The position numbers and the translations under genes were made by a program. Below, in pieces: positions 149 to 13,965 of a stretch of 32,000 nucleotides of DNA. Origin of the DNA: Bellilinea caldifistulae (GTDB taxonomy: Bacteria; Chloroflexota; Anaerolineae; Anaerolineales; Anaerolineaceae); the NCBI RefSeq assembly GCF_001306055.1, contig NZ_LGHJ01000029.1, positions 1-32,000 of the forward strand, in the 5' to 3' direction. Numbering within the stretch: the stretch's first letter is position 1; every line of letters starts with the position of its first letter. The notes beneath the pieces are model-generated. The model did not search any database. It was not told where the DNA came from and saw only the letters and a list, made by a program, of their open reading frames with translations.

Positions 149-649
149 ATGATTCGCGTTGGTATTATTACCATTTCTGACAGAAGTTTTCGAGGTGAGC
201 GGGATGACCTTTCGGGACCAGCCCTGGCGAACCGGGTCAAAAGCGCTGGTTTTTGTGTCGTTTCCACCACTATCCTTGCTGATGAGTTAGATCAGATCAA
301 ATCATGCCTGATCGAATGGTGCGACTCGGGTAATTTTGACCTGATCCTGACAACAGGCGGCACGGGTTTTGCGCCGCGGGATATTACCCCCGAAGCCACA
401 TTGGCCGTCCTGGAAAAAAGTGCCCCCGGCATTGCTGAAGCAATGCGAGCCCAAAGTTTGAAAATCACCCCTCATGCCATGCTCTCCCGTCAACAAGCCG
501 GCATAAGAAAGAAAACGCTCATTATTAATTTACCTGGCAGCCCCAAAGGAGCAGTTGAAAACCTCGAGGTTGTACTACCGGTGATCCCCCACGCCATTGA
601 ATTGCTGCAGGAGAACCCTGCGGCAGAGAAAGGACATCAAAAAACATAA
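149..649 (+). CDS. mogA: MoaB/MogA-family molybdenum cofactor biosynthesis protein (molybdopterin adenylyltransferase)
   Basis: 166 aa. Family signatures LILTTGGTGFAPRD and INLPGSPKGA. GGTGA Shine-Dalgarno-like sequence just upstream of the ATG. Confidence 0.85.
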   Translation: MIRVGIITISDRSFRGERDDLSGPALANRVKSAGFCVVSTTILADELDQIKSCLIEWCDSGNFDLILTTGGTGFAPRDITPEATLAVLEKSAPGIAEAMRAQSLKITPHAMLSRQQAGIRKKTLIINLPGSPKGAVENLEVVLPVIPHAIELLQENPAAEKGHQKT

Positions 650-663
650 GAGGAAAGTGAACT

Positions 664-861
664 ATGGCAGAACATAATACCGAGTTACGCAATGGTCATA
701 AACGCACTACCGTAAAGTTGGATCCAGGCGAAAGCGTAGCCCTTTGCCGATGCTTCCAATCAAAAGAATTTCCTTTTTGTGATGGTACTCATAAAACATT
801 GGATAGCGATTTAGGTCCAGTAATTGTTCAGGCGCCCAAACCGTCAGAAACAACAAAATAG
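664..861 (+). CDS. CDGSH-type [2Fe-2S] iron-sulfur domain protein (mitoNEET-like, single domain)
   Basis: 65 aa. Exact CDGSH motif C-x-C-x2-S-x3-P-x-C-D-G-T-H (CRCFQSKEFPFCDGTH). GAGG about 10 nt upstream of the ATG. Only 14 nt after the mogA stop. Confidence 0.85.
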   Translation: MAEHNTELRNGHKRTTVKLDPGESVALCRCFQSKEFPFCDGTHKTLDSDLGPVIVQAPKPSETTK

Positions 862-870
862 CCCTTTTAA

Positions 871-2148
871 TTAGCGTTCGTTTTCCAGAGCTTTTTGAAG
901 ATCATCTCCATTGCGGATGATGCGCAGCGGGATTCCATAGGCTTTCAACCTTTCGAAGACCCCGCATTCCTTAGGGTGTGCACCAAAACTTGCCGGGTCT
1001 AAACCGATGACCACTGGTCTCAGGTCCTTGCGCAAAAGGATCTCTATCGCCAGTTCAAGGACTTCGGAGCAAATGGCTGTGATTATCACCACAGTACTGC
1101 CTTTGGGAATCTGGCTTGTTTGGCCCTCAATCAAGCCGGTAATGGGTAAACTCCCCTCCGGCTGTAGAAAAGCCAGGGTTTCCAGCAACTTTCCCATTTG
1201 CCTCACGCCTTTCTCGGCGGGTAAGACACTCAACGTCTGGGCTGCACAGGCAAAGCCCACCGAGCGGCCGTGCTTTAAGTAATAATCCGCAACTGATGCG
1301 GCGCAGGAAACCCCATATTCAAATGAATTTGGTGGTAATGGAATGATCAGCTTTTGGGGAATGATCCAGTAATGATTGGCTCGATCAATTCGTTGAGTGT
1401 CGGCCATTGCCGAGTGAGTGCCAGCTTGTGCATCCAGCAAAATCCATACATCCGCCTGCGGGTCTTGTTCGAATTCTTTCACCATCAAGCGGTCTTTCCG
1501 TGCCGTCGTCTTCCAATGGATTCTATTCAAGGGATCGCCGGGAGCATATTCCCGGACTCCTGCCGCATAAGGGGTAACTTCAAGGCTTTTCCGCCTTAAT
1601 GCTCTCCCCCCCGGTAATTCGCCACCCGGTTCTGGAAATTTTTGCAAATTTACCATATAGGGGAAAACTAGCAAGGTTTTATCGGCAGGTATGATTTTAT
1701 TTACTGCGAAAAATCCAAACGGATCACCCGAAATCAAAACCGTGGGCCCAAGACGAAATGCTCCTCTCTGGATCAATAATGTCCTGGAAAAATAGGAGCG
1801 GCTCTGCCTGGGACCGATACCTGAAATGACTCGGGATCCCTGTTTCTCAGGCAATGGAGATAAATCTTTAACTTCAATCCACAACCTACCGTACCATGAT
1901 TCGTTGTGGACTTCAAATCTTTCTTCAAAAATCTGCCCTACTGGCAACCTGAGCACTCGCGCACTTCGTACAACACTTAATCCGCCCAATGCCAGTACCG
2001 CCCACAAAAACGCTATGGTTATCAATGCCAGTAAAAGGTATATTATCCGATAATATACAAACACAGTTGGTTGTTGGGTTAAATAAGCCCCAACAAAGGA
2101 GCCGGCGAGCAGAAGGACGAAGATAAAAAAAGGTGAACGGATTTTCAT
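871..2148 (-). CDS. DUF58 domain protein (MoxR-associated, VWA-like), membrane-anchored by N-terminal TM helices
   Basis: 425 aa. Two hydrophobic N-terminal helices, then the DUF58 core [29 protein letters not shown]. Its start ATG overlaps the moxR stop (ATGA at 2145-2148). Confidence 0.8.
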
Positions 2149-3122
2149 GCGGTTGAAGGCTGAAATGCAAGGTCCCCGCCCGGAACCGGCACCAGCGTAA
2201 CCAGCTCGTGAACAATCTGATCGGCGCTCAAGTTCCTCAACCTTGCTGACGGTTGAATAACCATTCGATGAGACAGGATATTTTCAGCCAATACCTTGAT
2301 ATCGTCCGGAAGCACATAATCCCTTCCATGAATAGCCGCCCTTGCCTGCCCCGCGCGGAATAAACCAAGGCTTCCTCTTGGACTTGACCCCAGGTAAACA
2401 TCTTGATTTTCACGGGTTGCCCGGGTCAATTCCACAATATATTGCCGTAAAGAACGGGATACATACACCGTTCGAATAATCTGTTGAACTTCCAGCAATT
2501 CGTCCACTTCAACAACAGGTTCCAATTCTTCGATCGGATGGCGCAATTGTTGAAGCTCCAAAATTTTCATTTCATCATAGAGAGAAGGATAACCTATTTT
2601 GATACGCATTAAGAAACGGTCTAATTGTGCTTCAGGCAGTGGAAATGTACCTTCATACTCAATCGGATTCTGTGTGGCTAAAACCAAGAATGGAACAGGC
2701 AACGGGTAGGTAACACCATCCACAGTAACCTGACGTTCCTCCATTGCCTCCAACAACGCTGACTGTGTTTTTGGAGTGGCGCGGTTAATTTCATCTGCCA
2801 GGACAATTTGCGCCATGATCGGTCCCGGTCGAAATTCAAACTCTCGGGTAACCTGATTGAAGATGGAAACTCCAGTGACATCACTCGGTAGCATATCCGG
2901 TGTAAATTGGATGCGGCTGAATTTTACCCCAAGGCTCTTTGCCAGGCTTCGGGCTAAAATTGTTTTACCAACTCCCGGCACATCATCAATCAAGAGATGC
3001 CCCTGACAAAGCAGGCTAATAATGACCATTTCAAGGGTATGTGTTTTACCCACAATGACTTTTTCCAGATTTTCCATAACCCGTTTTGAAAAGGATTGAA
3101 CTTTTTCAATGTTCTGATTCAT
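2145..3122 (-). CDS. moxR: MoxR-family AAA+ ATPase
   Basis: 325 aa. Walker [10 protein letters not shown], Walker B/sensor region [24 protein letters not shown]-terminal lid with SSPRGS. Classic MoxR-DUF58 gene order. Confidence 0.9.
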
Positions 3123-3132
3123 TCAGTGCTCC

Positions 3133-5460
3133 TCACCGAAATTTGATTGCCATTACAACCGTGATTAGACAAAATATCAAAGTGCCCAAACTGGCCCAAA
3201 GAACAAGAGGAAATGCAGTTGGAAGATACCGGAAGGTTATAATGTGATTTCCAGCAGGAACACATACACCTTTAAACAGATAATCAACTCGTTCAACCGA
3301 AGCGCTTTGTCCATCAATGGTTGCATCCCATCCCGGATACCAGCTGTCAGCAAAACGAAGCCAGCCGGTGGAATTGGTTCTTACAGCAACTTCAATCAAG
3401 TTGACCTCATCACGCAAAACCTCAATAGTGGTATTTGCACCAATCTGATCAGATGCAATTTTACATTGATCTTCCGCCTCAACAATTATACACTCCTCAC
3501 CATCAGAAAATTCCATTTGTTGTAGAACCATTGACTTAAGAACATTTTCATCCTTTCCGGCAACTCTTTGACATGCCCTCCACATTATTCTTGATTGGGG
3601 TTGCAGAGGTATTACATGCCAATCAAGATGATTCCCTAATTGGACAACACTTCCCACCCCGATTTTCTCAAGATAATTTTGACTTTCAACGGGGACAAGA
3701 TTATTGAGCCAATCCATCCACTGGTTATAACGGTTGGTCACCAACGGATCGAAATTATTGACCATTGGAACACCAAGTAATAAATTCATATTTGGAAGAG
3801 GGAGTAATTTAATTTCATCCCAGTTCGAATTTGCATTAAAGTCACTAAACAAAAGGTATTTTTCAAATTTCAACCGATTTTCTACCGTGGACGGGATATA
3901 AATCCTTGCATGATTCTCAAGAGGTTTGGAAACAGACGCAGAAGAATTGAAGAAACTTGCTTCCATAAACGGGTTCGAATAAGCCCCTGCTACCCATAAA
4001 TCCACTACCATAATCCCAACGGCAAAACCTTCCCACAATTTTCTTCTCTTGTGGTTGAATTCACCTTCCCCTGGCGTAAATAAAGCCAGTATAGAGATCA
4101 AGAATAACAAAACCCCAAAGGTCAGGAACGAACGTATAAAGGTCTGTTCGATTTGTGGCAATACAATGCCAGCCACCATCGCCCCAATCCCCACAGCCAC
4201 ACTCGCAGCTGCTAACAAACGAAGTCTCTTAATCCCTGCCGCCGTTGGATACCCCCAGGAATGAGCTCCAAGACCGGCGAGTAAAGCCAGAGAAAAAACC
4301 GCCAACAACATCCAGCGAGTGGGAGCTTGAAACATATCAAAACCGGGGACATGGCGATATAGCCATGGAAATACCGGCGTGTTTTTCCCCAAACTTAAAA
4401 CAATCGCAAAGATAATAATCATCCAGAGGAATTTGACCATTCGCCTTTTTTCATAATCAAAATCTGCGACCGGCTTTCGGCTGAAAATTAAATTAAGTGA
4501 ATGCAAGGATAAAAGAATGGGCAGTAAACCGATGTAGAGAGCGTCCTCCCAGTACGCCCCAAAACCCCAATAATTTCCCCTACCGGGATTACCAAACAAA
4601 TCCGGCAATAAGAAACCAAGCAAACGCCATGGCCAAAGAGAATAGTTCATGGCATATTCATAATCCACTGCATCGGATCGCTGCGATTGAAGTAAATATT
4701 CAAGAGTTGGTATCAGTTGCACACTCGCAATCAAAAAAGCCAACACCATTCCCAAGGCAAAAAGGGTCACAATTTTCAGTTTTGTTTTCCACAAGGATAT
4801 TTTGGCTACGCGAAATACAATCCACGATCCAGCAAAAACAAACGAGTAAAAGGTTAATTGAGCATGACCCGCCAGCAATTGGTTTGCAGCTATCAACGCC
4901 AGCCCAATCATCCACTGCCATTGTTGAGAAAACTTTTCGGATTTGATCAACCGCTCAATCGCCCATATCAACCATGGGAGCCAGACACCAGCCCAGATCA
5001 TGCTGAAAAAAGATGCACGTGCAACAAAATACCCGCAAAAGCTGAAAGCCAGTGCCGCAATTACCTGGCCACGAGTATTGACGCCCATCTCCCTCAGAAG
5101 CAAGGCCGTGCCAATTCCAGCAATCCCCAGATGAACCGCAACCAGCAAGGTATAAGCCCACGCTAAAGCTGGCGCTCCTCCTGCCAAATAAAAGGGGTAA
5201 AGGATCCATGATAAGGGGTATAGAAAAGCCGTTTGATAATTGGCAAAAAGCGGCGCCCCCATTCCATTTAAAGGATTCCAGAAGGGAAAGACACCCTCGC
5301 TCAATAATGCATAACCATAAGTCCGCCAAGGGATAAACTGAAGCCCGGCAGTCCCCCAAAAAATCACCTTCCCTTCAAGCAGCGGAATCAGGAAAAGTAT
5401 AAACGGAGCAAGAAAAACAAACCCATAAACCAGATTACCGCTTTTACAAAGAAGTTTCAT
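3133..5460 (-). CDS. YfhO-family polytopic membrane protein (GT-C-type glycosyltransferase candidate), copy B1
   Basis: 775 aa with many TM helices. N-terminal FPFWNPLNGMGAPLFANYQ..YP motif. C-terminal WYPGWDATIDGQSASVERVDYLFKGVCVPAGNHIITFRY followed by a terminal TM helix. I recognise this as the YfhO architecture. Confidence 0.75.
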   Translation of the reverse strand: MKLLCKSGNLVYGFVFLAPFILFLIPLLEGKVIFWGTAGLQFIPWRTYGYALLSEGVFPFWNPLNGMGAPLFANYQTAFLYPLSWILYPFYLAGGAPALAWAYTLLVAVHLGIAGIGTALLLREMGVNTRGQVIAALAFSFCGYFVARASFFSMIWAGVWLPWLIWAIERLIKSEKFSQQWQWMIGLALIAANQLLAGHAQLTFYSFVFAGSWIVFRVAKISLWKTKLKIVTLFALGMVLAFLIASVQLIPTLEYLLQSQRSDAVDYEYAMNYSLWPWRLLGFLLPDLFGNPGRGNYWGFGAYWEDALYIGLLPILLSLHSLNLIFSRKPVADFDYEKRRMVKFLWMIIIFAIVLSLGKNTPVFPWLYRHVPGFDMFQAPTRWMLLAVFSLALLAGLGAHSWGYPTAAGIKRLRLLAAASVAVGIGAMVAGIVLPQIEQTFIRSFLTFGVLLFLISILALFTPGEGEFNHKRRKLWEGFAVGIMVVDLWVAGAYSNPFMEASFFNSSASVSKPLENHARIYIPSTVENRLKFEKYLLFSDFNANSNWDEIKLLPLPNMNLLLGVPMVNNFDPLVTNRYNQWMDWLNNLVPVESQNYLEKIGVGSVVQLGNHLDWHVIPLQPQSRIMWRACQRVAGKDENVLKSMVLQQMEFSDGEECIIVEAEDQCKIASDQIGANTTIEVLRDEVNLIEVAVRTNSTGWLRFADSWYPGWDATIDGQSASVERVDYLFKGVCVPAGNHIITFRYLPTAFPLVLWASLGTLIFCLITVVMAIKFR

Positions 5461-5473
5461 TCGATAACTTTCC

Positions 5474-7063
5474 TTAATTTTTAATTATTGGACTAACCTT
5501 GTAGATGATATATTTGCTGTTTTCCGTAATTTTATTTAGAAATTCCATTTCTGAACCCGGTTTCATGAACCTCGGAGTTTTCGACTTACTTAAAATCCAG
5601 TAGTCCACCTGTTCCTCCTTCAAGAATTTAAAAAATTCAAGCGAATTACCTTTTAAAAATAAAAGATCCACTTGTTCTCTGATCAGTTTAGCTCGAATAC
5701 TTTCCGGGCCGTGGCCGATAATCACGCGAACTGGAGCATGCGCTGGAAGTAATGTGGATATTTCCCAATCTGCAAGAACCACAGACTGTTCTGGTATTAA
5801 TTTTCTTACACTTTCAAATAATTGGACTTCTTCCTTATGCAGGTAGAGGGGAAAAGCCTTTGCAGAAATAACGTCCAATGATCCAGCGAGAAGAGTAAAT
5901 GTGGTAACAAAATTTATCAAATACCAGGACACCCAAAGTTTTCCTAAACGATTTCTAATATGGATTAACCCGTTGATTGCCAGGATACTTAACACAACAA
6001 AACTGCCCTCCGCTAAACGTCTTTGGAGAAGATATGGAGCATATATAAGAAATGGAAGAAGGCAAGTCCATGTAATTAATAGACGGAATTTCGGCCGGGT
6101 GTTGTTATTGAGGATACCCACAATCGCAAAAGGGATGATTAAACCGTAAGCCAGGAAATACTCAATCACCGGTGGGGAAAGAATGACATTTTGAGACTGC
6201 CACGCTTTTAAAAACGGATCGAGACGAAAGGCAACGAAAGTATATATCACCAGAGGGGAAGAAACCAAAACGATCACGATCAACTTCAACATGTGATCAT
6301 GTAGATACTTCTTTAAATCATTAAAACCTCTCCTACTGGCCAGGACCAACTCAACCAAGTTGTAAGCAGAGAGAATCAACCAGCCAATAGGTACAGTAAG
6401 GGGTTGCATAAAAGCCAGCAGATTCCACAAAACCCCAATGATCACACTTTCCTTCAGGGAGTTGTTTGAATTACTTTCCAGGAATTTTGCTAAACCTATA
6501 AATAAAAAGCCTCTGGCCCAAACCAAATGAGGAATTGAAAGAAAAGATAAAAAACCAAAGGTTTCAGGCGAATAAAACTCTAATGGCAGGTATGACCATA
6601 TCTTATTCAATCCCAAAAAATACAAAAATCCAAGCCCTCCTCCAAATGTAGATAAAATCAACGCTAAAAATCGGCCTGGTGTTTCCCGAATAAAAATTGA
6701 GGCAAACCGATAAACTGCATAAAGACAAAAACCAATGCCCACGATACGAAACAAATGGAAAAGAAATATTCTTGTGTGATAGTCGCCATCAGAACCCACC
6801 AATTTTCCTAAAAGGAGATATGGGAAGAATGCCAAAAAACCTTTTTGCGGAAAGGCAGTATATGGGGTTTTGAAGAGCCAGGCCCCTTTTGCCCCCGCTA
6901 ACATTTTTGCCAGATAAGAATTTCCATCTTCTACCCCAATTAATAGACCTGTGTAAAAAAAATCATTGCTCGAATTAAGCCAGCCAACTAAATAAGGAAA
7001 AGACGTAATCACAGCTATTATTAGCCAAGATAAAGAAAGACCAATCTTTTCACTTTTCTTCAT
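5474..7063 (-). CDS. Unassigned ~530-aa polytopic membrane protein, copy A1 (paralog of 9149-10678; GT-C-like by inference)
   Basis: The ORF is open to 7108, but MKKSEKIG at 7063 aligns with the paralog's N-terminus and reduces the overlap with the upstream gene to 14 nt. About 12 hydrophobic segments plus a ~120-aa C-terminal soluble domain. Acidic first-loop motif GVEDGNSYLAKM. Confidence 0.6.
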   Translation of the reverse strand: MKKSEKIGLSLSWLIIAVITSFPYLVGWLNSSNDFFYTGLLIGVEDGNSYLAKMLAGAKGAWLFKTPYTAFPQKGFLAFFPYLLLGKLVGSDGDYHTRIFLFHLFRIVGIGFCLYAVYRFASIFIRETPGRFLALILSTFGGGLGFLYFLGLNKIWSYLPLEFYSPETFGFLSFLSIPHLVWARGFLFIGLAKFLESNSNNSLKESVIIGVLWNLLAFMQPLTVPIGWLILSAYNLVELVLASRRGFNDLKKYLHDHMLKLIVIVLVSSPLVIYTFVAFRLDPFLKAWQSQNVILSPPVIEYFLAYGLIIPFAIVGILNNNTRPKFRLLITWTCLLPFLIYAPYLLQRRLAEGSFVVLSILAINGLIHIRNRLGKLWVSWYLINFVTTFTLLAGSLDVISAKAFPLYLHKEEVQLFESVRKLIPEQSVVLADWEISTLLPAHAPVRVIIGHGPESIRAKLIREQVDLLFLKGNSLEFFKFLKEEQVDYWILSKSKTPRFMKPGSEMEFLNKITENSKYIIYKVSPIIKN

Positions 7064-9152
7064 GGGGCCATCGAAAAGAAAAATAAAGTACCAAACAAAG
7101 CCATGCAATAATACTTAATCCCAACCCAATAAAGACCAATCTCGGTCTAAACTCTAATTGTACGGTGTGTTCCCCGTTGGGTAAATTTATAACGGGGAAG
7201 AGATTTTCCTTCAAAGTGAAAGATACCGGTTGCCCATCCATACTAATCATCCAGCCCGGATAATAAACATGAGAAACGAATAACCGGCCCGGTCCACTGG
7301 CAGTTAGATCAAGTTTATTGGGTTGTACTTTAAGATTGTCAACAGGCAACCGTTCACCTTCATAGTCTATCCATGCTAATCCAATAAAATGGGGGTTCTC
7401 GTAAACTCGGCTTTCTGAAAACCGAGCAACCTCATTAGTCTTCAGCGCCGGAATGTCAAACTCCGACACGATAAATCGAACCCCAAGCAGGCTCATTAAT
7501 TCCAGATCCGGTGTGTAGTTTCGATTGTCTGTTTTTGGATCATCGTTCGGGAAAGGTGGGAGAGTCACGCTATAACGGTCAAGAGGTATGCCGCTTGCCC
7601 GGATAAAAAATTCCTGAAATGTGTTCAGGATCAAAGGATCCACGCCATTGACCATTTTGATATTTTGGAGCGCCGCAATATGTTGAGGAATGCTGTATGA
7701 GGGTGAATAAATTCGGAATTCACCGCTTTGTGATTTCAAGAATTCAACCACTGCCGGATTTTCGGAAAAAACCTCCGCCCGGGTTTTCCATTGAATGCTT
7801 TGCTGATTAACCAGCGATAAATCCACAATTAACAACAAGATCAATATTTTTACACCCTGAACGATCAAGTGCCTTTTACGCTCCACTAAAGCAATTAGAA
7901 AAATAACGCTCAACAGGTTGAAAAAACCCCAGATTAAGTTTGTCGATATTTTCTGCCCCAATAGAACGAAACCCAATCCAAAGAAACCCGTAAAAGCCGC
8001 AAAAGGCGTCATAAAAAAGACCGGATCTGGGCGAAACAGATTTTCTCTTTCGAGCAAGTCATGTAGACCCCACGCCGCAAGGATTGCAAATCCCATTCCC
8101 CCTAAAAAGTAAAAACGGGTGGGTACTCGCAATAAATCCATGCCGGGTAAAGTTGACAGGATTGAAAAGAATGGTAACGTATTCCCCAGGGAAAGCAGCA
8201 GGCTGAGAAGAACTACCAGCCACCAGAATGCGGTTTTCTTACGAAGGCCCGGGATGGATATTGAATAAATAGCAAGGCAAAAAACGAGAGCACCGGGGTA
8301 CAGAACCCATTCTGCAAAACCACCAAAATCCGGTATCCACAAACCTAAAATCTCTTCAAAGGGTAAAGAATTCACTGCGATGTCACTTTGATTCATTAGA
8401 GATCGCGTCGAAAGGTGGGTATATTCGAGTAATGGCAACAACAAAACCGATGCCAGCAGCAAGGCACCCGCGAAAACCAATGGAATTTCGGTAATTTGGT
8501 TGGTGATCTCGACAATGGTATTTGTTTTGCGCCTTCGAATCAGGTCATAAACCAACCATCCGGCCCACAATAAAACCGCATACGCCACCCAGCGCACATC
8601 CGCCAGAGCAATCAGCCCTAATATGCCGGCAGAGATCAGCCAGCGAGATTTATTTTGATTAGCCATTTGATTATATACAAGCCAGGGTGTCCAGCAAACG
8701 GCATAAATCAGGGTGATATGCCCGGCCGCGAAATGAGCAAACAACTTCGGCATCAATAAGAAAGCAAGCGCCCCTAAAATACTGGCTTCTCTGCGCAAAT
8801 TTTGATAAACCAGAAACCGTTTAATTCCAACGGCTCCCCAAAACAAATGGAGCATCACAAGAATGTTAAAACCAGTAGGGTATGGGAAAATGTAAGCCAG
8901 CCAACCCGGCGGATACCATAAACCTGCCAGCGGATTGGCCGCAAAGGGATAACCGCCCAAAATCAGTGTTGACCAAAAAGGAAATGTCCCATGATTTTTG
9001 ATACTATCCAGAAGATAAATAGCGTTTGGCAGATGAGTAATGGTTAAGTCTGAAAACCCCGAATATCTCGGATAAAAAAAATATTCCGCGCCGATTAGCC
9101 ATGGGATTAAGGGAATTACCAGGATTAACCACTCAAATTTTTTTCGGATCAT
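7050..9152 (-). CDS. YfhO-like polytopic membrane protein (GT-C candidate), copy B2
   Basis: 700 aa. TFPFWSTLILGGYPFAANPLAGLWYP N-terminal motif. C-terminal YYPGWMISMDGQPVSFTLKENLFPVINLPNGEHTVQLEFRP plus a terminal TM helix, parallel to B1. Its start overlaps the upstream gene's stop (ATGA at 9149-9152). Confidence 0.7.
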   Translation of the reverse strand: MIRKKFEWLILVIPLIPWLIGAEYFFYPRYSGFSDLTITHLPNAIYLLDSIKNHGTFPFWSTLILGGYPFAANPLAGLWYPPGWLAYIFPYPTGFNILVMLHLFWGAVGIKRFLVYQNLRREASILGALAFLLMPKLFAHFAAGHITLIYAVCWTPWLVYNQMANQNKSRWLISAGILGLIALADVRWVAYAVLLWAGWLVYDLIRRRKTNTIVEITNQITEIPLVFAGALLLASVLLLPLLEYTHLSTRSLMNQSDIAVNSLPFEEILGLWIPDFGGFAEWVLYPGALVFCLAIYSISIPGLRKKTAFWWLVVLLSLLLSLGNTLPFFSILSTLPGMDLLRVPTRFYFLGGMGFAILAAWGLHDLLERENLFRPDPVFFMTPFAAFTGFFGLGFVLLGQKISTNLIWGFFNLLSVIFLIALVERKRHLIVQGVKILILLLIVDLSLVNQQSIQWKTRAEVFSENPAVVEFLKSQSGEFRIYSPSYSIPQHIAALQNIKMVNGVDPLILNTFQEFFIRASGIPLDRYSVTLPPFPNDDPKTDNRNYTPDLELMSLLGVRFIVSEFDIPALKTNEVARFSESRVYENPHFIGLAWIDYEGERLPVDNLKVQPNKLDLTASGPGRLFVSHVYYPGWMISMDGQPVSFTLKENLFPVINLPNGEHTVQLEFRPRLVFIGLGLSIIAWLCLVLYFSFRWPHEEK

Positions 9153-10678
9153 GATCCCTGCCGTGTTTCAAGAATAATGAAACGATCATTTTGATACACA
9201 ACTGGCAATTTCTCCATCCATTTTGAAAATTTAGAAAGATTACCACGGGGCCAAACGAGGTATTCAATCTGATATGATTCGACAAAGTGGCTAAATTCAC
9301 CTTGACTGATTTCCCCGTCATAAAATTGCTCAAGCCAATCTTGAGTCATATTGGCATAAACCGTCTCAAAAGGATGACCATAGACCACTCGACAATTTGT
9401 ATAAGCCGGTACGAGTAAGCCCAAATCAGCCGGTGTAAGTATCACCGCTTTACGAGGGCAGACCTCCCGGTTCATCCATTCTAAAACGGCAAACTCATCC
9501 CGGCTGAGATAAAGAGGCGACCGATGTTGTGTATAAGCCTGTAACGCGCCAAACAGCAAAAACAGATTTGTAAGCAAAGAAAGCGGTAAAATCAACCAGA
9601 ACCATTTTCGGAATCGGGAGATCCGGTTTTTTGTAATCCTGCCCAACCCAATCAAGGCAAAAATCCCCACAGGAATAAACCAACCCAATAAAAACCGCCT
9701 TTGAAGCGCAAAGGGAAAGTAAGCCAGACCAACCCCGCTGATCAACCACGCTGCGACAAGATTGAGATTCTTGTCACGATCCTGAACAACCCATAATCCA
9801 ATACCAATCAAAGCCAACAAAAGTAGCGGTGCAAACGAGAGCAGAAGTACCCAAAGCGAGGGGGTCGGTGTTTGATTTTGAGCATTCCAATCCCTCAAAA
9901 GAGGATCGGAAAGGATCGCAAAATATTGATAAACCAGCACAATACCGGCCGGTAACAAATAAAACAAAGGTAATTTCCATTGAATCTTTTCGCTCTGAAA
10001 CCACCTGAAAAAATTATAGACCACAATTACCGCAGACCCGACCACAACACCAAAAGGTAAAACGATCGCGAGGATTACCCCCAAAAATGGATCAAACCAT
10101 TTTACCGAACGGTTTTCTTGAATTCCCGAAAAGAACATCAACAATAATCCAACCCCAAAGGGAAAGTGCGGATTGGCTATCATGCTTAAAAAGGGATAGG
10201 CCTCAGCCACCCAAAAATCCATTGTAAAAACACCCAGCGGACCGGCTAACCATCCGAATCCGGAACCAAACAAAATCACAAACAAGAGATAGGAAAACAC
10301 ACTTTGAAGCCACCTGACCTGAATCGTCCGAAGAAACATCTCAATACCGAAACATAAAAAAAACCCTGCTGCAATTCGGGCCAGATGAAAAACGAGTGTG
10401 GGTTGCAACGAGAAAATTCTGGCAATATGTCCAAGAAAGATATAAAACAAGAAAAGAAACGCACCTGCCCCTTCTTGAGAAGTATACGGCAAATGAAATA
10501 ACCATTCTCCACGTAAGCCAATTTGCATCTTCGCCAGATAGCTGAATCCATCAATCGGATTCAACAAAAATCCACTGTAAATATAATGTGCATCCTGGAG
10601 GAGTAAACCTACCAGGAATGGCAACCCACTAAAAATCACAGTAAGGAGGATAATAAATCGAGATATTTTTTGAGGCAT
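9149..10678 (-). CDS. Unassigned ~510-aa polytopic membrane protein, copy A2 (paralog of 5474-7063)
   Basis: The ORF is open to 10738. The start at 10678 (MPQKISRF) was chosen by alignment with A1. Motifs shared with A1: PFLVGLL, IDGFSYLAKMQIGLRGEWLFHLPYT, DPLLRDWNAQN, YFPFALQRRF, PLYLSRDEF, LLVPAYTNCRVVYGHPFE. Confidence 0.6.
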   Translation of the reverse strand: MPQKISRFIILLTVIFSGLPFLVGLLLQDAHYIYSGFLLNPIDGFSYLAKMQIGLRGEWLFHLPYTSQEGAGAFLFLFYIFLGHIARIFSLQPTLVFHLARIAAGFFLCFGIEMFLRTIQVRWLQSVFSYLLFVILFGSGFGWLAGPLGVFTMDFWVAEAYPFLSMIANPHFPFGVGLLLMFFSGIQENRSVKWFDPFLGVILAIVLPFGVVVGSAVIVVYNFFRWFQSEKIQWKLPLFYLLPAGIVLVYQYFAILSDPLLRDWNAQNQTPTPSLWVLLLSFAPLLLLALIGIGLWVVQDRDKNLNLVAAWLISGVGLAYFPFALQRRFLLGWFIPVGIFALIGLGRITKNRISRFRKWFWLILPLSLLTNLFLLFGALQAYTQHRSPLYLSRDEFAVLEWMNREVCPRKAVILTPADLGLLVPAYTNCRVVYGHPFETVYANMTQDWLEQFYDGEISQGEFSHFVESYQIEYLVWPRGNLSKFSKWMEKLPVVYQNDRFIILETRQGS

Positions 10679-10770
10679 AAGGGAATTCGATTTGAAGTAT
10701 ACTTGAGAAGAAATGTACCTGCAATTGAAAATGGACATCCTAATCCGAAACCAGCATCACGCATAAACTT

Positions 10771-11472
10771 ATGAGTCAATCCTTTCACTTGTTTCAATTA
10801 CAAAAAGTGGATACACGGCTGGATCAAATTCAGCAGCGTATCAACTCAATCCTGCAGGAAATTGAGAATGACGCCCGCTTAAAAACGGCTCAAGAACAAC
10901 ATCGTCGGGCTTTGGAAAAATTCAACCAAATTCAACGGGAATTAAAAAAAATTGAACACGAAGTTGAAATCCGTCGGTTGAAACTAGAACAAAGCGAAGC
11001 CAATCTATATTCCGGGAGGATAAAAGTCCCAAAGGAATTACAAGATTTACAAAACGAAGTCGCGTCCTTAAAACGCAGTATTACCACTCTGGAAGATCAG
11101 CAGATTGAGATCATGATTCAGCTGGAAGAGGCAAAAAACGAATTTGACCAACTTCAACAGGCACTCTTGCAGGTTGAAGCTGAAGTCGCTCAAAGCCACG
11201 CCGGCTTAATTGGCGAAAAAACCCGACTCGAAAACGACCAGCAAAGGTTATTAACCGAAAAACAGGTAATCCTTTCCCAAATCTCCCCCGCCACACTTGC
11301 CGAATACGAAAAACTCCGCGAAAAAAAACAAGGTATTGCTGTAGCATCTGTGGAAGACTCTTCCTGCAGCGCTTGTGGGGCAGGCCTTACCCCTGCGCAA
11401 TGTCAGGCCGCTCGATCCCCCTCCACCATATTTTACTGCCCTTCTTGCGGCAGAATCATCTACGCAGGATAA
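10771..11472 (+). CDS. COG1579/DUF164-type coiled-coil protein with C-terminal C4 zinc ribbon (HP0958-like)
   Basis: 233 aa. About 190 aa of heptad-rich Q/E/L/K sequence, then CSAC...x20...CPSC (nt about 11365-11448). Confidence 0.8.
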   Translation: MSQSFHLFQLQKVDTRLDQIQQRINSILQEIENDARLKTAQEQHRRALEKFNQIQRELKKIEHEVEIRRLKLEQSEANLYSGRIKVPKELQDLQNEVASLKRSITTLEDQQIEIMIQLEEAKNEFDQLQQALLQVEAEVAQSHAGLIGEKTRLENDQQRLLTEKQVILSQISPATLAEYEKLREKKQGIAVASVEDSSCSACGAGLTPAQCQAARSPSTIFYCPSCGRIIYAG

Positions 11473-11478
11473 ACCATT

Positions 11479-13965
11479 ATGTTTGGTTTAGATAACTTCG
11501 CACTGGATCGGCTTTCCTTCTGGTTGGGTTTCATTGGCGGTACGCTTTTCTGGTTGTTACTCAACCGGCTGTGGAAAGGATTACCGTTTATTCGCCAGAC
11601 CGTTCAGCAGATCATCGAAGCCAATCGAAGAAAAACCATGTCTGGCGTAGAAAGTGCACTCAGGCAGGATGCCCTCCGCAGAGCTCAACGAAATCATCTG
11701 AGCGCTTCTTTGTTTTCGCTGGACGAGATTGTTGTTGAACCCCACCTACTGGCACCACCTCCTCAAGCCGACCCACAAACTACCCTGTCGGTCGAACGGT
11801 ATGCCTTTCATGTGATGCCATATTTGCCTGAATTTCCAGAATTTGCCACCCGACTCGGCTGGCCACGTTTGACCATTTTCGAAGCTCTGCAGGGAGGCAC
11901 TCATCTAGCTCTGCTTGGCGAAGCCGGCTCTGGTAAATCAACCGCGCTGGCATTTATCACCTCCTTGATTGCTCGCCAAGACCAGAAAGCGGCTCATTGG
12001 GGAGAGTATTTTCCAGTTTATCTTCACATTCTTGACCTTGAGTTCCAAACTTCAAACCAGAAAGACTTACTTGATCCTATCATCAAATCTCTTTCCGCGT
12101 CCGCACCAGTAACTTCTCTACCTCAAATTCCAGGGTTTATTCGCAGCGTGTTCAAGAATGGAAAAGTGATTTGTGTGTTCGATGGTCTTGATGAATTAAA
12201 CAAAGAGCAATTTCTCAACGTTCAATCTTACCTGAGCGAACTGATCTCTCAGTATCCATCCATCCGCATTATTACAGCAGTAAACCATCAATACCTCGAT
12301 GGCTTGGGTCGGCTTTCCTTTGAACCTTTTGTTTTAGCCGGGTGGACCAAGGACGAGTTGACCAATTTTATCAATCGCTGGGGGGTATTGTGGAACAATC
12401 TAATTGGGATTGCCGCCTCTCAACAACAAAAACTGGAAATTTTAGATAACCTTCTGGTCACCAACTGGCTCGGTTATGATCCGCTTTACTGTACACCTTT
12501 GGAATGGACGCTTAAGGTTTGGGGAGCATTCGCCGGTGATTTGCAAGGGGCTGAAGAATTTACCACCCTATCAGCGCATCTCAGCCGGGTGACTCACTAT
12601 CGAGTTCCCCTCGCAGCGATGAGTGTTCTCGCAAATGCAATGATCCGAGACCAATCTCCCACTATTGAATATTCGGATGCAGAAAAAGCCCTTTCTGAAT
12701 TCCGTTTGGATAAAGACGAAGAGGCCAGACTGATTGAAGAGGAAAAAACAACCAATCCATCCTCTTTACAGAAAGAAATGGGAGCAAAGTCTGTGACCTC
12801 CGGCAACCGAATATTATCGATTCTGCTCGAAGCAGGAATCCTTGCAGAACATCAAGGAGACCGTTTAAGATTTTTCTCACCGGTTTGGACGGGTTACCTT
12901 GCAGCTACTCAACCTCCATCCCATCCAATCGTTCCACCCATGCGGCTGTACTCGTCATTGGATGATGCGTACTACCATTACTTGACGATCTTACAACCGG
13001 ACAACTGGCTGGATGCTTACCTGCAAAGAGATGAATCCCCCTTCTATACCAATCTGATCAACGGTCTGCGTTGGATTAAAGACACGCCATCCAACCATCC
13101 CGCTCGATCGCTGGTATTGAGAAAATGTATATCCTTCCTCCAGAATGAGATGATGCCGTACTCCTTGCGAGCCCGTGTTTTAGCCGGTTGTGTTTCCTCA
13201 AACGATACGGCTCTAACCCTGCTTTTCAAACAATTTCTCGCCAGTGCTTCCTCGACAATGCGAACCCTGGCTGCCTTAGGATGCGGCGCTCTGCAGGACA
13301 CCAAAACCATTCCTAATCTAATTTCACTGCTCAATGATGAACATCCTGAAACCCGAATGGCCGCCTGTTTTGCACTGGCGTGTTTTGATAACCCAGATGC
13401 AGAGAAAGCAATTCTCAACTGTATTCATTTTGCGGAAGAATCCTTGCGTCTGGCAGCAGCGGAAACATTGACTATGAATGTTCGTAAGGGGCACGCCCGC
13501 CTCAAAGAATTAACTGAATCAGAAGATTTGCTGGTAAGAAGATCTGCTGTGTTTGGTTTTTCTCTAATTCAGGAGGAATGGGTAGTGGATTTATTGGAAA
13601 AGATGGCCGTGGAAGACAGCCAATGGGTTGTTCGTAACGCCGCTGGTCAGGCTTTGGAAAACCGCCAAAAAGCCAATCCCTTCATTCCGCCGCGTCAAAA
13701 AGAACCCGCTGATACTGCCTGGTTGATTGCGTTTGCCGCCAAAAGAGGGGTAGGCATTTCCAAAGGGGATACAGCCATTCCCTTACTTCTGGATGTTTTA
13801 GCAAGTGGTACGGATGAAGAAAAAATTGCTGCCTTGTGGTTTTTACGGCATCACCGCCAGAATTCGGTGATTTCTCAACTTTATCCGTTATTATATTCTC
13901 CACAAATTGAGTTGAGAGACACCGCCAATTATGCCCTCTGGTTTATGTCCATATGTGATAACTGA
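11479..13965 (+). CDS. STAND NTPase: N-terminal TM helix + NACHT domain + C-terminal HEAT repeats
   Basis: 828 aa. Hydrophobic helix LSFWLGFIGGTLFWLLL (nt about 11512-11568). Walker A GEAGSGKST (11917-11943). NACHT-type Walker B VFDGLDEL (about 12175-12198), followed by IRIITAVN. The C-terminal ~230 aa has repeated HEAT/PBS-lyase-like units (ETRMAACFALACF, LRLAAAETL, LLVRRSAVFGFS, WVVRNAAGQAL). Starts 6 nt after the upstream stop. Confidence 0.75.
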   Translation: MFGLDNFALDRLSFWLGFIGGTLFWLLLNRLWKGLPFIRQTVQQIIEANRRKTMSGVESALRQDALRRAQRNHLSASLFSLDEIVVEPHLLAPPPQADPQTTLSVERYAFHVMPYLPEFPEFATRLGWPRLTIFEALQGGTHLALLGEAGSGKSTALAFITSLIARQDQKAAHWGEYFPVYLHILDLEFQTSNQKDLLDPIIKSLSASAPVTSLPQIPGFIRSVFKNGKVICVFDGLDELNKEQFLNVQSYLSELISQYPSIRIITAVNHQYLDGLGRLSFEPFVLAGWTKDELTNFINRWGVLWNNLIGIAASQQQKLEILDNLLVTNWLGYDPLYCTPLEWTLKVWGAFAGDLQGAEEFTTLSAHLSRVTHYRVPLAAMSVLANAMIRDQSPTIEYSDAEKALSEFRLDKDEEARLIEEEKTTNPSSLQKEMGAKSVTSGNRILSILLEAGILAEHQGDRLRFFSPVWTGYLAATQPPSHPIVPPMRLYSSLDDAYYHYLTILQPDNWLDAYLQRDESPFYTNLINGLRWIKDTPSNHPARSLVLRKCISFLQNEMMPYSLRARVLAGCVSSNDTALTLLFKQFLASASSTMRTLAALGCGALQDTKTIPNLISLLNDEHPETRMAACFALACFDNPDAEKAILNCIHFAEESLRLAAAETLTMNVRKGHARLKELTESEDLLVRRSAVFGFSLIQEEWVVDLLEKMAVEDSQWVVRNAAGQALENRQKANPFIPPRQKEPADTAWLIAFAAKRGVGISKGDTAIPLLLDVLASGTDEEKIAALWFLRHHRQNSVISQLYPLLYSPQIELRDTANYALWFMSICDN

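Follow-up and report, generated by a model that had tools for sequence, protein, structure and literature searches.

A conserved operon of four putative GT-C membrane glycosyltransferases in Anaerolineae, with a lineage-restricted MoxR-DUF58 pair at its 3' end

Our analysis of a 32,000-nucleotide stretch of the genome of Bellilinea caldifistulae (class Anaerolineae; the whole stretch is referred to below as the window) concerned six co-directional, tightly packed minus-strand genes at positions 871-10738, which the list of open reading frames (ORFs) places in the order A2-B2-A1-B1-moxR-DUF58. The first four encode membrane proteins of two families, here called A and B, and the last two a MoxR-type AAA+ ATPase and a DUF58 protein. 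On balance, we consider it probable that A2-B2-A1-B1 is an old quartet of membrane glycosyltransferases of the GT-C fold which, together with a donor synthase of glycosyltransferase family 2 (GT2), builds or decorates an envelope glycan, and that the MoxR-DUF58 pair is a later, lineage-specific addition to it.

Neither A1 nor A2 was assigned to a family in the Pfam and NCBIfam scans, the same was true of 24 divergent A members scanned against Pfam, and comparison of A1 singly and of the A-family profile with the chains of the Protein Data Bank (PDB) gave nothing useful at the sequence level; A was for this reason identified by fold comparison only. An AlphaFold (AF2) model of A1 based on 32 homologs (pLDDT 89.7, pTM 0.90) was compared with the PDB by Foldseek, and all 26 matches with E <= 1e-3 were GT-C enzymes (TMq 0.46-0.57), including the C-mannosyltransferase DPY19 (1.8e-8), the oligosaccharyltransferases STT3, AglB and PglB, the arabinosyltransferase AftA, ALG12 and ArnT. 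The model thus indicates that A is a GT-C-fold glycosyltransferase in its own right, and not the polytopic partner of unknown kind envisaged in a preliminary description of this DNA, in which case the operon would encode four GT-C enzymes. The first extracytoplasmic loop is the site of the catalytic acids in GT-C enzymes. In A1, residues E45-D46 directly follow the first transmembrane helix of the model, with D46 the same in all of 32 sequences and E45 in nearly all, and the motif is conserved at >=90% in 86 sequences; A2 has a conserved D63 in its first loop as the equivalent of this acidic site, consistent with a catalytic role for A1 D46/E45 and A2 D63. The two proteins are paralogs, with 28% identity over ~530 amino acids (aa; E 1e-38) and a profile-profile E of 3e-95, in which A1 residues 4-535 align to A2 21-529. 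The family is large, comprising 5846 clusters (50% identity) of a representative library at E <= 1e-3; the stricter E <= 1e-30 leaves 2208.

The B proteins are related to the YfhO family. B1 matched the Pfam model (PF09586) over residues 32-519 with 101.4 bits (E 6e-29), and B2 scored 33.1 bits against a cut-off of 28.5 through its C-terminal 64 residues only, both values lying above the gathering score. Their identity is 23% over the full length (E 1e-23; profile-profile E 2e-71), so that the two paralog pairs and the YfhO likeness of B were correctly recognized in the preliminary description, and the GT-C likeness that it proposed was found in A by fold and in B by the YfhO match. A comparison of the A and B profiles did not reach significance (E 0.003, probability 11%), and A and B would accordingly count as separate families by sequence, with the fold the only thing in common. 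A conserved aspartate (D35) was also identified in the first loop of B2 orthologs; B1 searched singly against the PDB chains by sequence returned nothing useful.

Among the best 150 family representatives, three metagenomic proteins (P0206, P0217 and P0243) are encoded by single genes in which a YfhO domain resembling B2 is joined to a domain resembling A1. The N-terminal half of one of them shares 37% identity with B2 (E 8e-119), and one is a continuous gene of 1391 codons on a 50-kb contig. The existence of such B2-A1 fusions makes it likely that A and B operate in pairs. One fusion locus (L081, 10001-14176) stands alone, with no second pair, MoxR-DUF58 or GT2.

The packing of the six genes in the window is consistent with a single transcriptional unit. 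Four-nucleotide ATGA overlaps join moxR to DUF58 (2145-2148) and A2 to B2 (9149-9152), and the 14-nt overlap of B2 and A1 (7050-7063) places the A1 ATG, at 7063, inside B2. The remaining junctions are gaps of 13 nt between A1 and B1 (5461-5473), with AGGAAAG ahead of the B1 ATG, and of 10 nt between B1 and moxR (3123-3132), with GGAG as ribosome-binding site ahead of the moxR ATG. Terminator-like sites inside the block numbered 22, against 15.3 +/- 3.5 in shuffled sequences, which was neither an enrichment nor evidence of a convincing internal terminator, and a promoter scan of the block likewise revealed no enrichment over shuffles. By all of these signs, MoxR-DUF58 would be co-transcribed with the quartet in the window. 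The block with these overlaps and gaps, and its reading as two A+B modules followed by MoxR-DUF58, had been put forward before, and both were borne out by the ORF coordinates and order and by the Pfam assignments.

Public gene calls (GCA_001050215.2) contain the same six genes, the sole difference being that A2 begins at M21. The A2 ORF opens at 10738, yet conservation and the alignment to the A1 profile begin near residue 21, and translation probably starts at M21 (10678). Truncated public annotations also exist for A1 (476 aa, P0001) and DUF58 (261 aa, P0302); the homolog alignments favored the full-length forms, and the shorter A1 would drop the conserved E45-D46 motif.

The quartet is widespread among relatives of Bellilinea. 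A scan of one genome per species yielded 354 relatives, the best 80 loci of which (L001-L080) were all from Anaerolineae; the window proteins were placed on these loci by tblastn, and 65 loci were informative in having enough sequence after B1. Across the 169 loci of this study (L001-L169), A2-B2-A1-B1 was present in nearly all. The commonest order in L001-L080 is that of the window, flanks included, namely NACHT(-) CT398(-) A2 B2 A1 B1 MoxR DUF58 MoCF(-), and this order recurs in many genomes and is not unique to Bellilinea. MoxR-DUF58 followed B1 in 53 of the 65 informative loci, directly in 42 and past one extra gene, termed C, in 11, one of which (L068) keeps MoxR and has lost DUF58. The pair remains attached to B1 even where the downstream flank differs from that of the window, and it is found immediately behind B1 or C in loci of widely differing relatedness, with A1 identities down to ~36%. 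It is absent after B1 in the other 12 loci, four of which (L018, L033, L036 and L048) have MoCF directly after B1 and the rest unrelated genes; none of the 65 carries an adjacent GT2.

Gene C, not present in the window, follows B1 in many relatives (for example L038 8742-9851, L058 14054-15199 and L085 9502-10617) and encodes a polytopic protein of ~370 aa in which the motif GYDGQF is conserved. The protein was assigned to no Pfam family and gave a single weak match to ALG6/ALG8; profile-profile comparison of C with A or B was not significant. In one subclade (L038, L051, L066, L068, L070, L077, L084 and L157), a membrane spermine-synthase-like protein is encoded after MoxR-DUF58, and in most such loci the next gene is Lit-like (lipoprotein intramolecular transacylase), extending the envelope theme. 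The pair is missing from L072, where B1-C is followed by the spermine-synthase-like and Lit-like genes that sister loci have after DUF58.

A different gene content was found at the end of the quartet in more distant relatives. The A domain of the 1391-codon fusion, used as query, led to a divergent group including Thermoflexales, and a metagenome scan with the alignment of this group added 80 more loci, giving a divergent set (L081-L169) with 29 informative loci. Five contexts read directly had the order [NACHT(-) CT398(-)] A2 B2 A1 B1 (C) GT2 methyltransferase, sometimes with further PMT_2-type GT-C genes. The GT2 and methyltransferase genes directly followed B1 or C in 24 of the 29 loci, at the position held by MoxR-DUF58 elsewhere, while three loci had MoxR-DUF58 and two had neither; no informative locus of either set carried both after B1 or C. 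The operon GT2 is a protein of 242-249 aa with its best NCBIfam likeness to PpgS (polyprenyl-phospho-GalNAc synthase, E 1e-20) and further likeness to AglJ (dolichyl-phosphate glycosyltransferase) and ArnC (undecaprenyl-phosphate transferase). This operon linkage would lend indirect support to sugar transfer by A from a lipid-phosphate-linked donor. In a quick neighbor-joining tree of A1, the loci without MoxR-DUF58 formed the deepest group, and the crown group had the pair, with at least four separate losses.

No GT2, GtrA or Wzx gene was detected among the 31 further ORFs of the window (a set excluding ORFs below 90 aa and a few nested ORFs), as the preliminary description had noted for GT2 and GtrA, and no GT2 was found by tblastn in the window, nor in the 8 kb past its left edge. 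The GT2 in the homologous operon of relatives nevertheless implies that the system includes a GT2 for donor synthesis, encoded elsewhere in the Bellilinea genome. Four loci of a clade with neither MoxR-DUF58 nor an adjacent GT2 (L031, L035, L055 and L061) have a GT2 homolog with 41-49% identity 4-6 kb downstream of B1, in a separate Roadblock/LC7-V4R-GT2 cluster beside Ras-like GTPase and DUF4388 genes. A 123-aa ORF beside the L031 homolog was considered as a GtrA flippase and rejected, as it encodes a Roadblock/LC7 protein.

Taken together, these results would be consistent with an old four-gene unit of two A-family and two YfhO-like GT-C membrane glycosyltransferases, probably acting as A-B pairs, that moves sugars from polyprenyl-phosphate-sugar donors to an envelope acceptor specific to Anaerolineae. 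The donor would be made by the small GT2, whose gene belongs to the operon itself in related orders and lies at another site in Bellilinea, and the acceptor could be a polysaccharide or lipoglycan, or Ser/Thr-rich surface proteins. The expectation that YfhO-type enzymes decorate teichoic acids agrees with published work (PMC5836110, PMC8035078), but not as their only role, since such enzymes also O-glycosylate Ser/Thr-rich regions of surface proteins (bioRxiv 10.1101/2024.05.05.592596). The MoxR-DUF58 pair would have been gained at the 3' end in the lineage of Bellilinea and its relatives, where other lineages have GT2-methyltransferase. There, DUF58 may act as a membrane-tethered adaptor that recruits the MoxR ring to its predicted cytoplasmic domains, and the polytopic GT-Cs may be remodelled by the pair, or assembled with its help, much as NorQD acts on NorB, the pair being dispensable for the quartet.

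The identity of the last two genes as MoxR and DUF58, also proposed earlier, is well supported. MoxR matched AAA_3 (220.8 bits) and AAA_lid_2 (76.2 bits) and contains the motifs GVGKT and DEINR; its closest solved relative is 2r44 (E 1.6e-77), with RavA and midasin more distant. The DUF58 protein matched PF01882 with 58.8 bits against a cut-off of 23.4; searched singly against PDB chains by sequence it gave nothing useful, and its homolog search returned close Anaerolineae relatives only. Its AF2 model (pLDDT 80.7) comprises transmembrane helices at 5-23 and 29-53, a beta-sandwich at 57-162, a strongly conserved linker at 176-230 modelled with low confidence, and an alpha/beta domain at 234-425. 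In Foldseek searches the beta-sandwich matched Ig-like domains, and the alpha/beta domain matched von Willebrand factor A (VWA) domains, including NorD of NorQD (9qhd_G, 7e-5), the VWA domain of CMG2 and the MIDAS (metal-ion-dependent adhesion site) domain of MDN1. The MIDAS of DUF58 is degenerate, with D239-A-Q-A-G in place of DxSxS. Since positive charge is found at the N-terminus as well as behind the second helix, the soluble domains are predicted to lie in the cytoplasm, on the side of MoxR.

Several observations weigh against the reading of the quartet as four donor-dependent transferases with a later MoxR-DUF58 addition. B1 orthologs (L001-L169) have no conserved aspartate or glutamate before residue 254, unlike A1, A2 and B2, so that not all four proteins need be catalytic; B1 may use E305-D306 instead or be non-catalytic. 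The PpgS, AglJ and ArnC scores of the operon GT2 are far below the family cut-offs, and flippase genes of GtrA or Wzx type turned up neither among the window ORFs scanned nor in the gene tables of L081-L089, although in known systems such genes are commonly not linked (PMC8035078). The gains and losses were read from a quick tree with midpoint rooting, and the either/or distribution of GT2-methyltransferase and MoxR-DUF58 may be confounded by phylogeny and reflect a single ancestral rearrangement. The first of these points would also fit a role for A and/or B other than sugar transfer, for example as acceptor-binding subunits, as polymerase- or ligase-like proteins, or in non-sugar transfer from lipid carriers, as would the C-terminal-only YfhO match of B2, the lack of a sequence-level match of A to any characterized enzyme, and the proposal in a review that a second protein recognizes the acceptor in some GT-C systems (PMC8035078). 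We regard this as very unlikely, as A1, A2 and B2 keep first-loop acids where GT-Cs have catalytic residues, all structural matches were glycosyltransferases, and a GT2 resembling polyprenyl-phosphate-sugar synthases is operon-linked in relatives.

The place of MoxR-DUF58 is the more debatable part of the analysis. The pair might be an unrelated passenger, a general envelope or stress module like those of Bat-type and mycobacterial moxR operons, perhaps driven by a promoter located within the 3' end of B1. The distribution fits a single gain with later vertical inheritance and recurrent losses, MoxR with VWA is described as a transferable module occurring in different membrane settings (PMC5898192, PMC11834572, PMC12067865), and one subclade has other envelope genes after the pair; however, the pair is held after B1 or C to low A1 identity and with changed downstream genes, an independent promoter would not fit between B1 and moxR in the window, and canonical VWA, tetratricopeptide repeat (TPR) or transglutaminase partner genes are lacking here. 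We therefore treat a passenger as possible but doubtful. The opposite position, a firmer form of what the preliminary description raised as a possibility, was that of a self-contained machine strictly dependent on a MoxR chaperone and a DUF58 adaptor as integral parts, and it would account for the tight packing with a ribosome-binding site at the B1/moxR junction, for the linkage in most close relatives irrespective of the downstream flank, and for a membrane-anchored DUF58 that is VWA-like as is NorD, the partner of NorQ, which brings a polytopic membrane enzyme to maturity. The strongest claim of that description, a self-contained machine under chaperone control, is also the one least supported by the data: 12 of the 65 close-relative loci and 26 of the 29 divergent loci have the quartet without the pair, and the pair is absent from deeper lineages and repeatedly lost where the quartet persists, so it is not a required component; L068 has MoxR without DUF58; and the GT2 and methyltransferase genes of relatives, at the very position of MoxR-DUF58, show that the machine is not self-contained. 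Moreover, the flanking genes match MoxR-DUF58 in synteny among close relatives, so that conserved adjacency within the family is no proof of functional coupling and may be inherited rather than selected. We consider strict dependence quite improbable. Somewhat less so, while still unlikely, is that MoxR-DUF58 serves as a dedicated, membrane-tethered AAA+ factor that assembles or activates four GT-Cs in a hetero-oligomeric complex, with A and YfhO forming an obligate two-subunit enzyme; this would make the GT-Cs the first defined client class of a DUF58-type MoxR and the complex the first AAA+-controlled GT-C machine.

Comparison with known systems points to both shared logic and clear differences. 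The Gram-positive systems composed of a CsbB/GtlA GT2, GtcA and YfhO/GtlB (PMC8035078, PMC5836110) share the YfhO-family GT-Cs and, through the operons of relatives, the GT2; they have one GT-C, whereas here there are four in two A+B pairs, including a family A without a Pfam model, with no GT2 in the window, no GtrA-type flippase seen nearby, MoxR-DUF58 attached, and a host organism, a member of the Chloroflexota, with no known teichoic acids. The Pgf system for protein O-glycosylation of Streptococcus mutans (GT2 PgfS, PgfE and the YfhO-like PgfM1 and PgfM2; bioRxiv 10.1101/2024.05.05.592596) also combines two YfhO-like GT-Cs with a GT2, and the B2 C-terminus weakly matches the PgfM1 model (22 bits against a cut-off of 1400). 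Beta-helix surface proteins encoded by L089 and L157 would fit a protein acceptor as in Pgf, but there is no epimerase or adhesin gene in the window, and Pgf is without family A and MoxR-DUF58. Tandem GT-C paralogs, polyprenyl-phosphate-sugar donors and envelope glycans likewise recall mycobacterial embCAB and PpgS (Rv3631) with the GT-C Rv3779, the GT2 of relatives being nearest to PpgS and the A1 model matching AftA, although the phylum differs and there is no sequence-level relationship to Emb/Aft.

For the downstream pair, the order MoxR then DUF58, the overlapping or near-overlapping genes and the envelope-related context are shared with Bat operons (MoxR(MRP)-DUF58-VWA-TPR), mycobacterial moxR1-DUF58-VWA and bifidobacterial PFNA (PMC11834572, PMC12067865). 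The usual company of MoxR-DUF58 given in the preliminary description, VWA/Bat-type or transglutaminase-like genes, is missing from this locus: the window scans identified no VWA (of BatA/B type or other), TPR or transglutaminase gene, convergent CDGSH and MoCF genes follow DUF58, and the pair ends a glycosyltransferase operon here while leading its own there. In NorQ-NorD, CbbQ-CbbO and RavA-ViaA, a MoxR-family ATPase works with a VWA adaptor on a defined client; the C-terminal domain of DUF58 superposes on the NorD VWA, and the logic of an adaptor bringing the AAA+ ring to a membrane client could apply, with the differences that the MIDAS is degenerate and no metal-cofactor enzyme is present in the operon.

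The GT-C fold, the YfhO family, MoxR and DUF58 are all of known kinds; what appears new is a GT-C family A without a Pfam model or solved relative, a class-wide A-B-A-B quartet, and a stable MoxR-DUF58 linkage in one large clade. Anaerolineae are abundant filamentous bacteria of sludge, sediments and hot springs, and to our knowledge almost nothing has been reported on their envelope glycans; a literature search on their envelope glycosyltransferases returned nothing relevant. A class-wide operon of four GT-Cs would thus point to a major, uncharacterized pathway for an envelope glycoconjugate. None of the papers in the literature collection searched links YfhO with MoxR or DUF58, in agreement with the novelty suspected at the outset. 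The function of DUF58 and the clients of MoxR proper are still unknown (PMC12067865), and a stable linkage to defined membrane enzymes across a large clade provides a concrete client hypothesis. The linkage is at the same time clade-restricted and dispensable, and a claim of chaperone-controlled glycosylation should not rest on synteny alone.

Table 1. Genes of the block and its flanks, with positions in the window.
Feature	Position	Strand	Size and basis
MoCF_biosynth gene	149-649	+	convergent, downstream boundary
CDGSH zinc-finger gene	664-861	+	65 aa; convergent; end 9 nt from DUF58 stop
DUF58 protein	871-2148	-	425 aa; ORF list and PF01882
MoxR-type AAA+ ATPase	2145-3122	-	325 aa; AAA_3 and AAA_lid_2
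B1, YfhO-family, predicted GT-C	3133-5460	-	775 aa; PF09586
A1, predicted GT-C fold, family without Pfam model	5474-7063	-	529 aa; ORF reaches 7108, ATG 7063
B2, divergent YfhO-like, predicted GT-C	7050-9152	-	700 aa; C-terminal YfhO match
A2, predicted GT-C-fold membrane protein, A1 paralog	9149-10738	-	529 aa ORF; 509 aa with M21 start at 10678
CT398-like coiled-coil/zinc-ribbon gene	10771-11472	+	Pfam; divergent, upstream of A2
NACHT+HEAT NTPase	11479-13965	+	Pfam; divergent, upstream

The CT398 and NACHT genes lie upstream of A2 in most of L001-L080 and also in divergent loci (L085-L087, L090, L094-L096 and L162), and the retention of this position in Thermoflexales-type loci makes their link to the quartet steadier than that of MoxR-DUF58. 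The intergenic region between CT398 and A2 measures 32 nt, rising to 92 nt if M21 is taken as the A2 start, and suggests a shared control region between the two genes. At the other end of the block, the convergent CDGSH and DUF58 genes end too near each other for a stem-loop terminator to fit between them. Two very large beta-helix proteins are candidate glycosylation substrates, one with CLIPPER directly after the methyltransferase gene (L089 16067-21674) and one with Big_6 between C and MoxR (L157 12557-15037); as acceptors, these surface proteins may serve as a lead.

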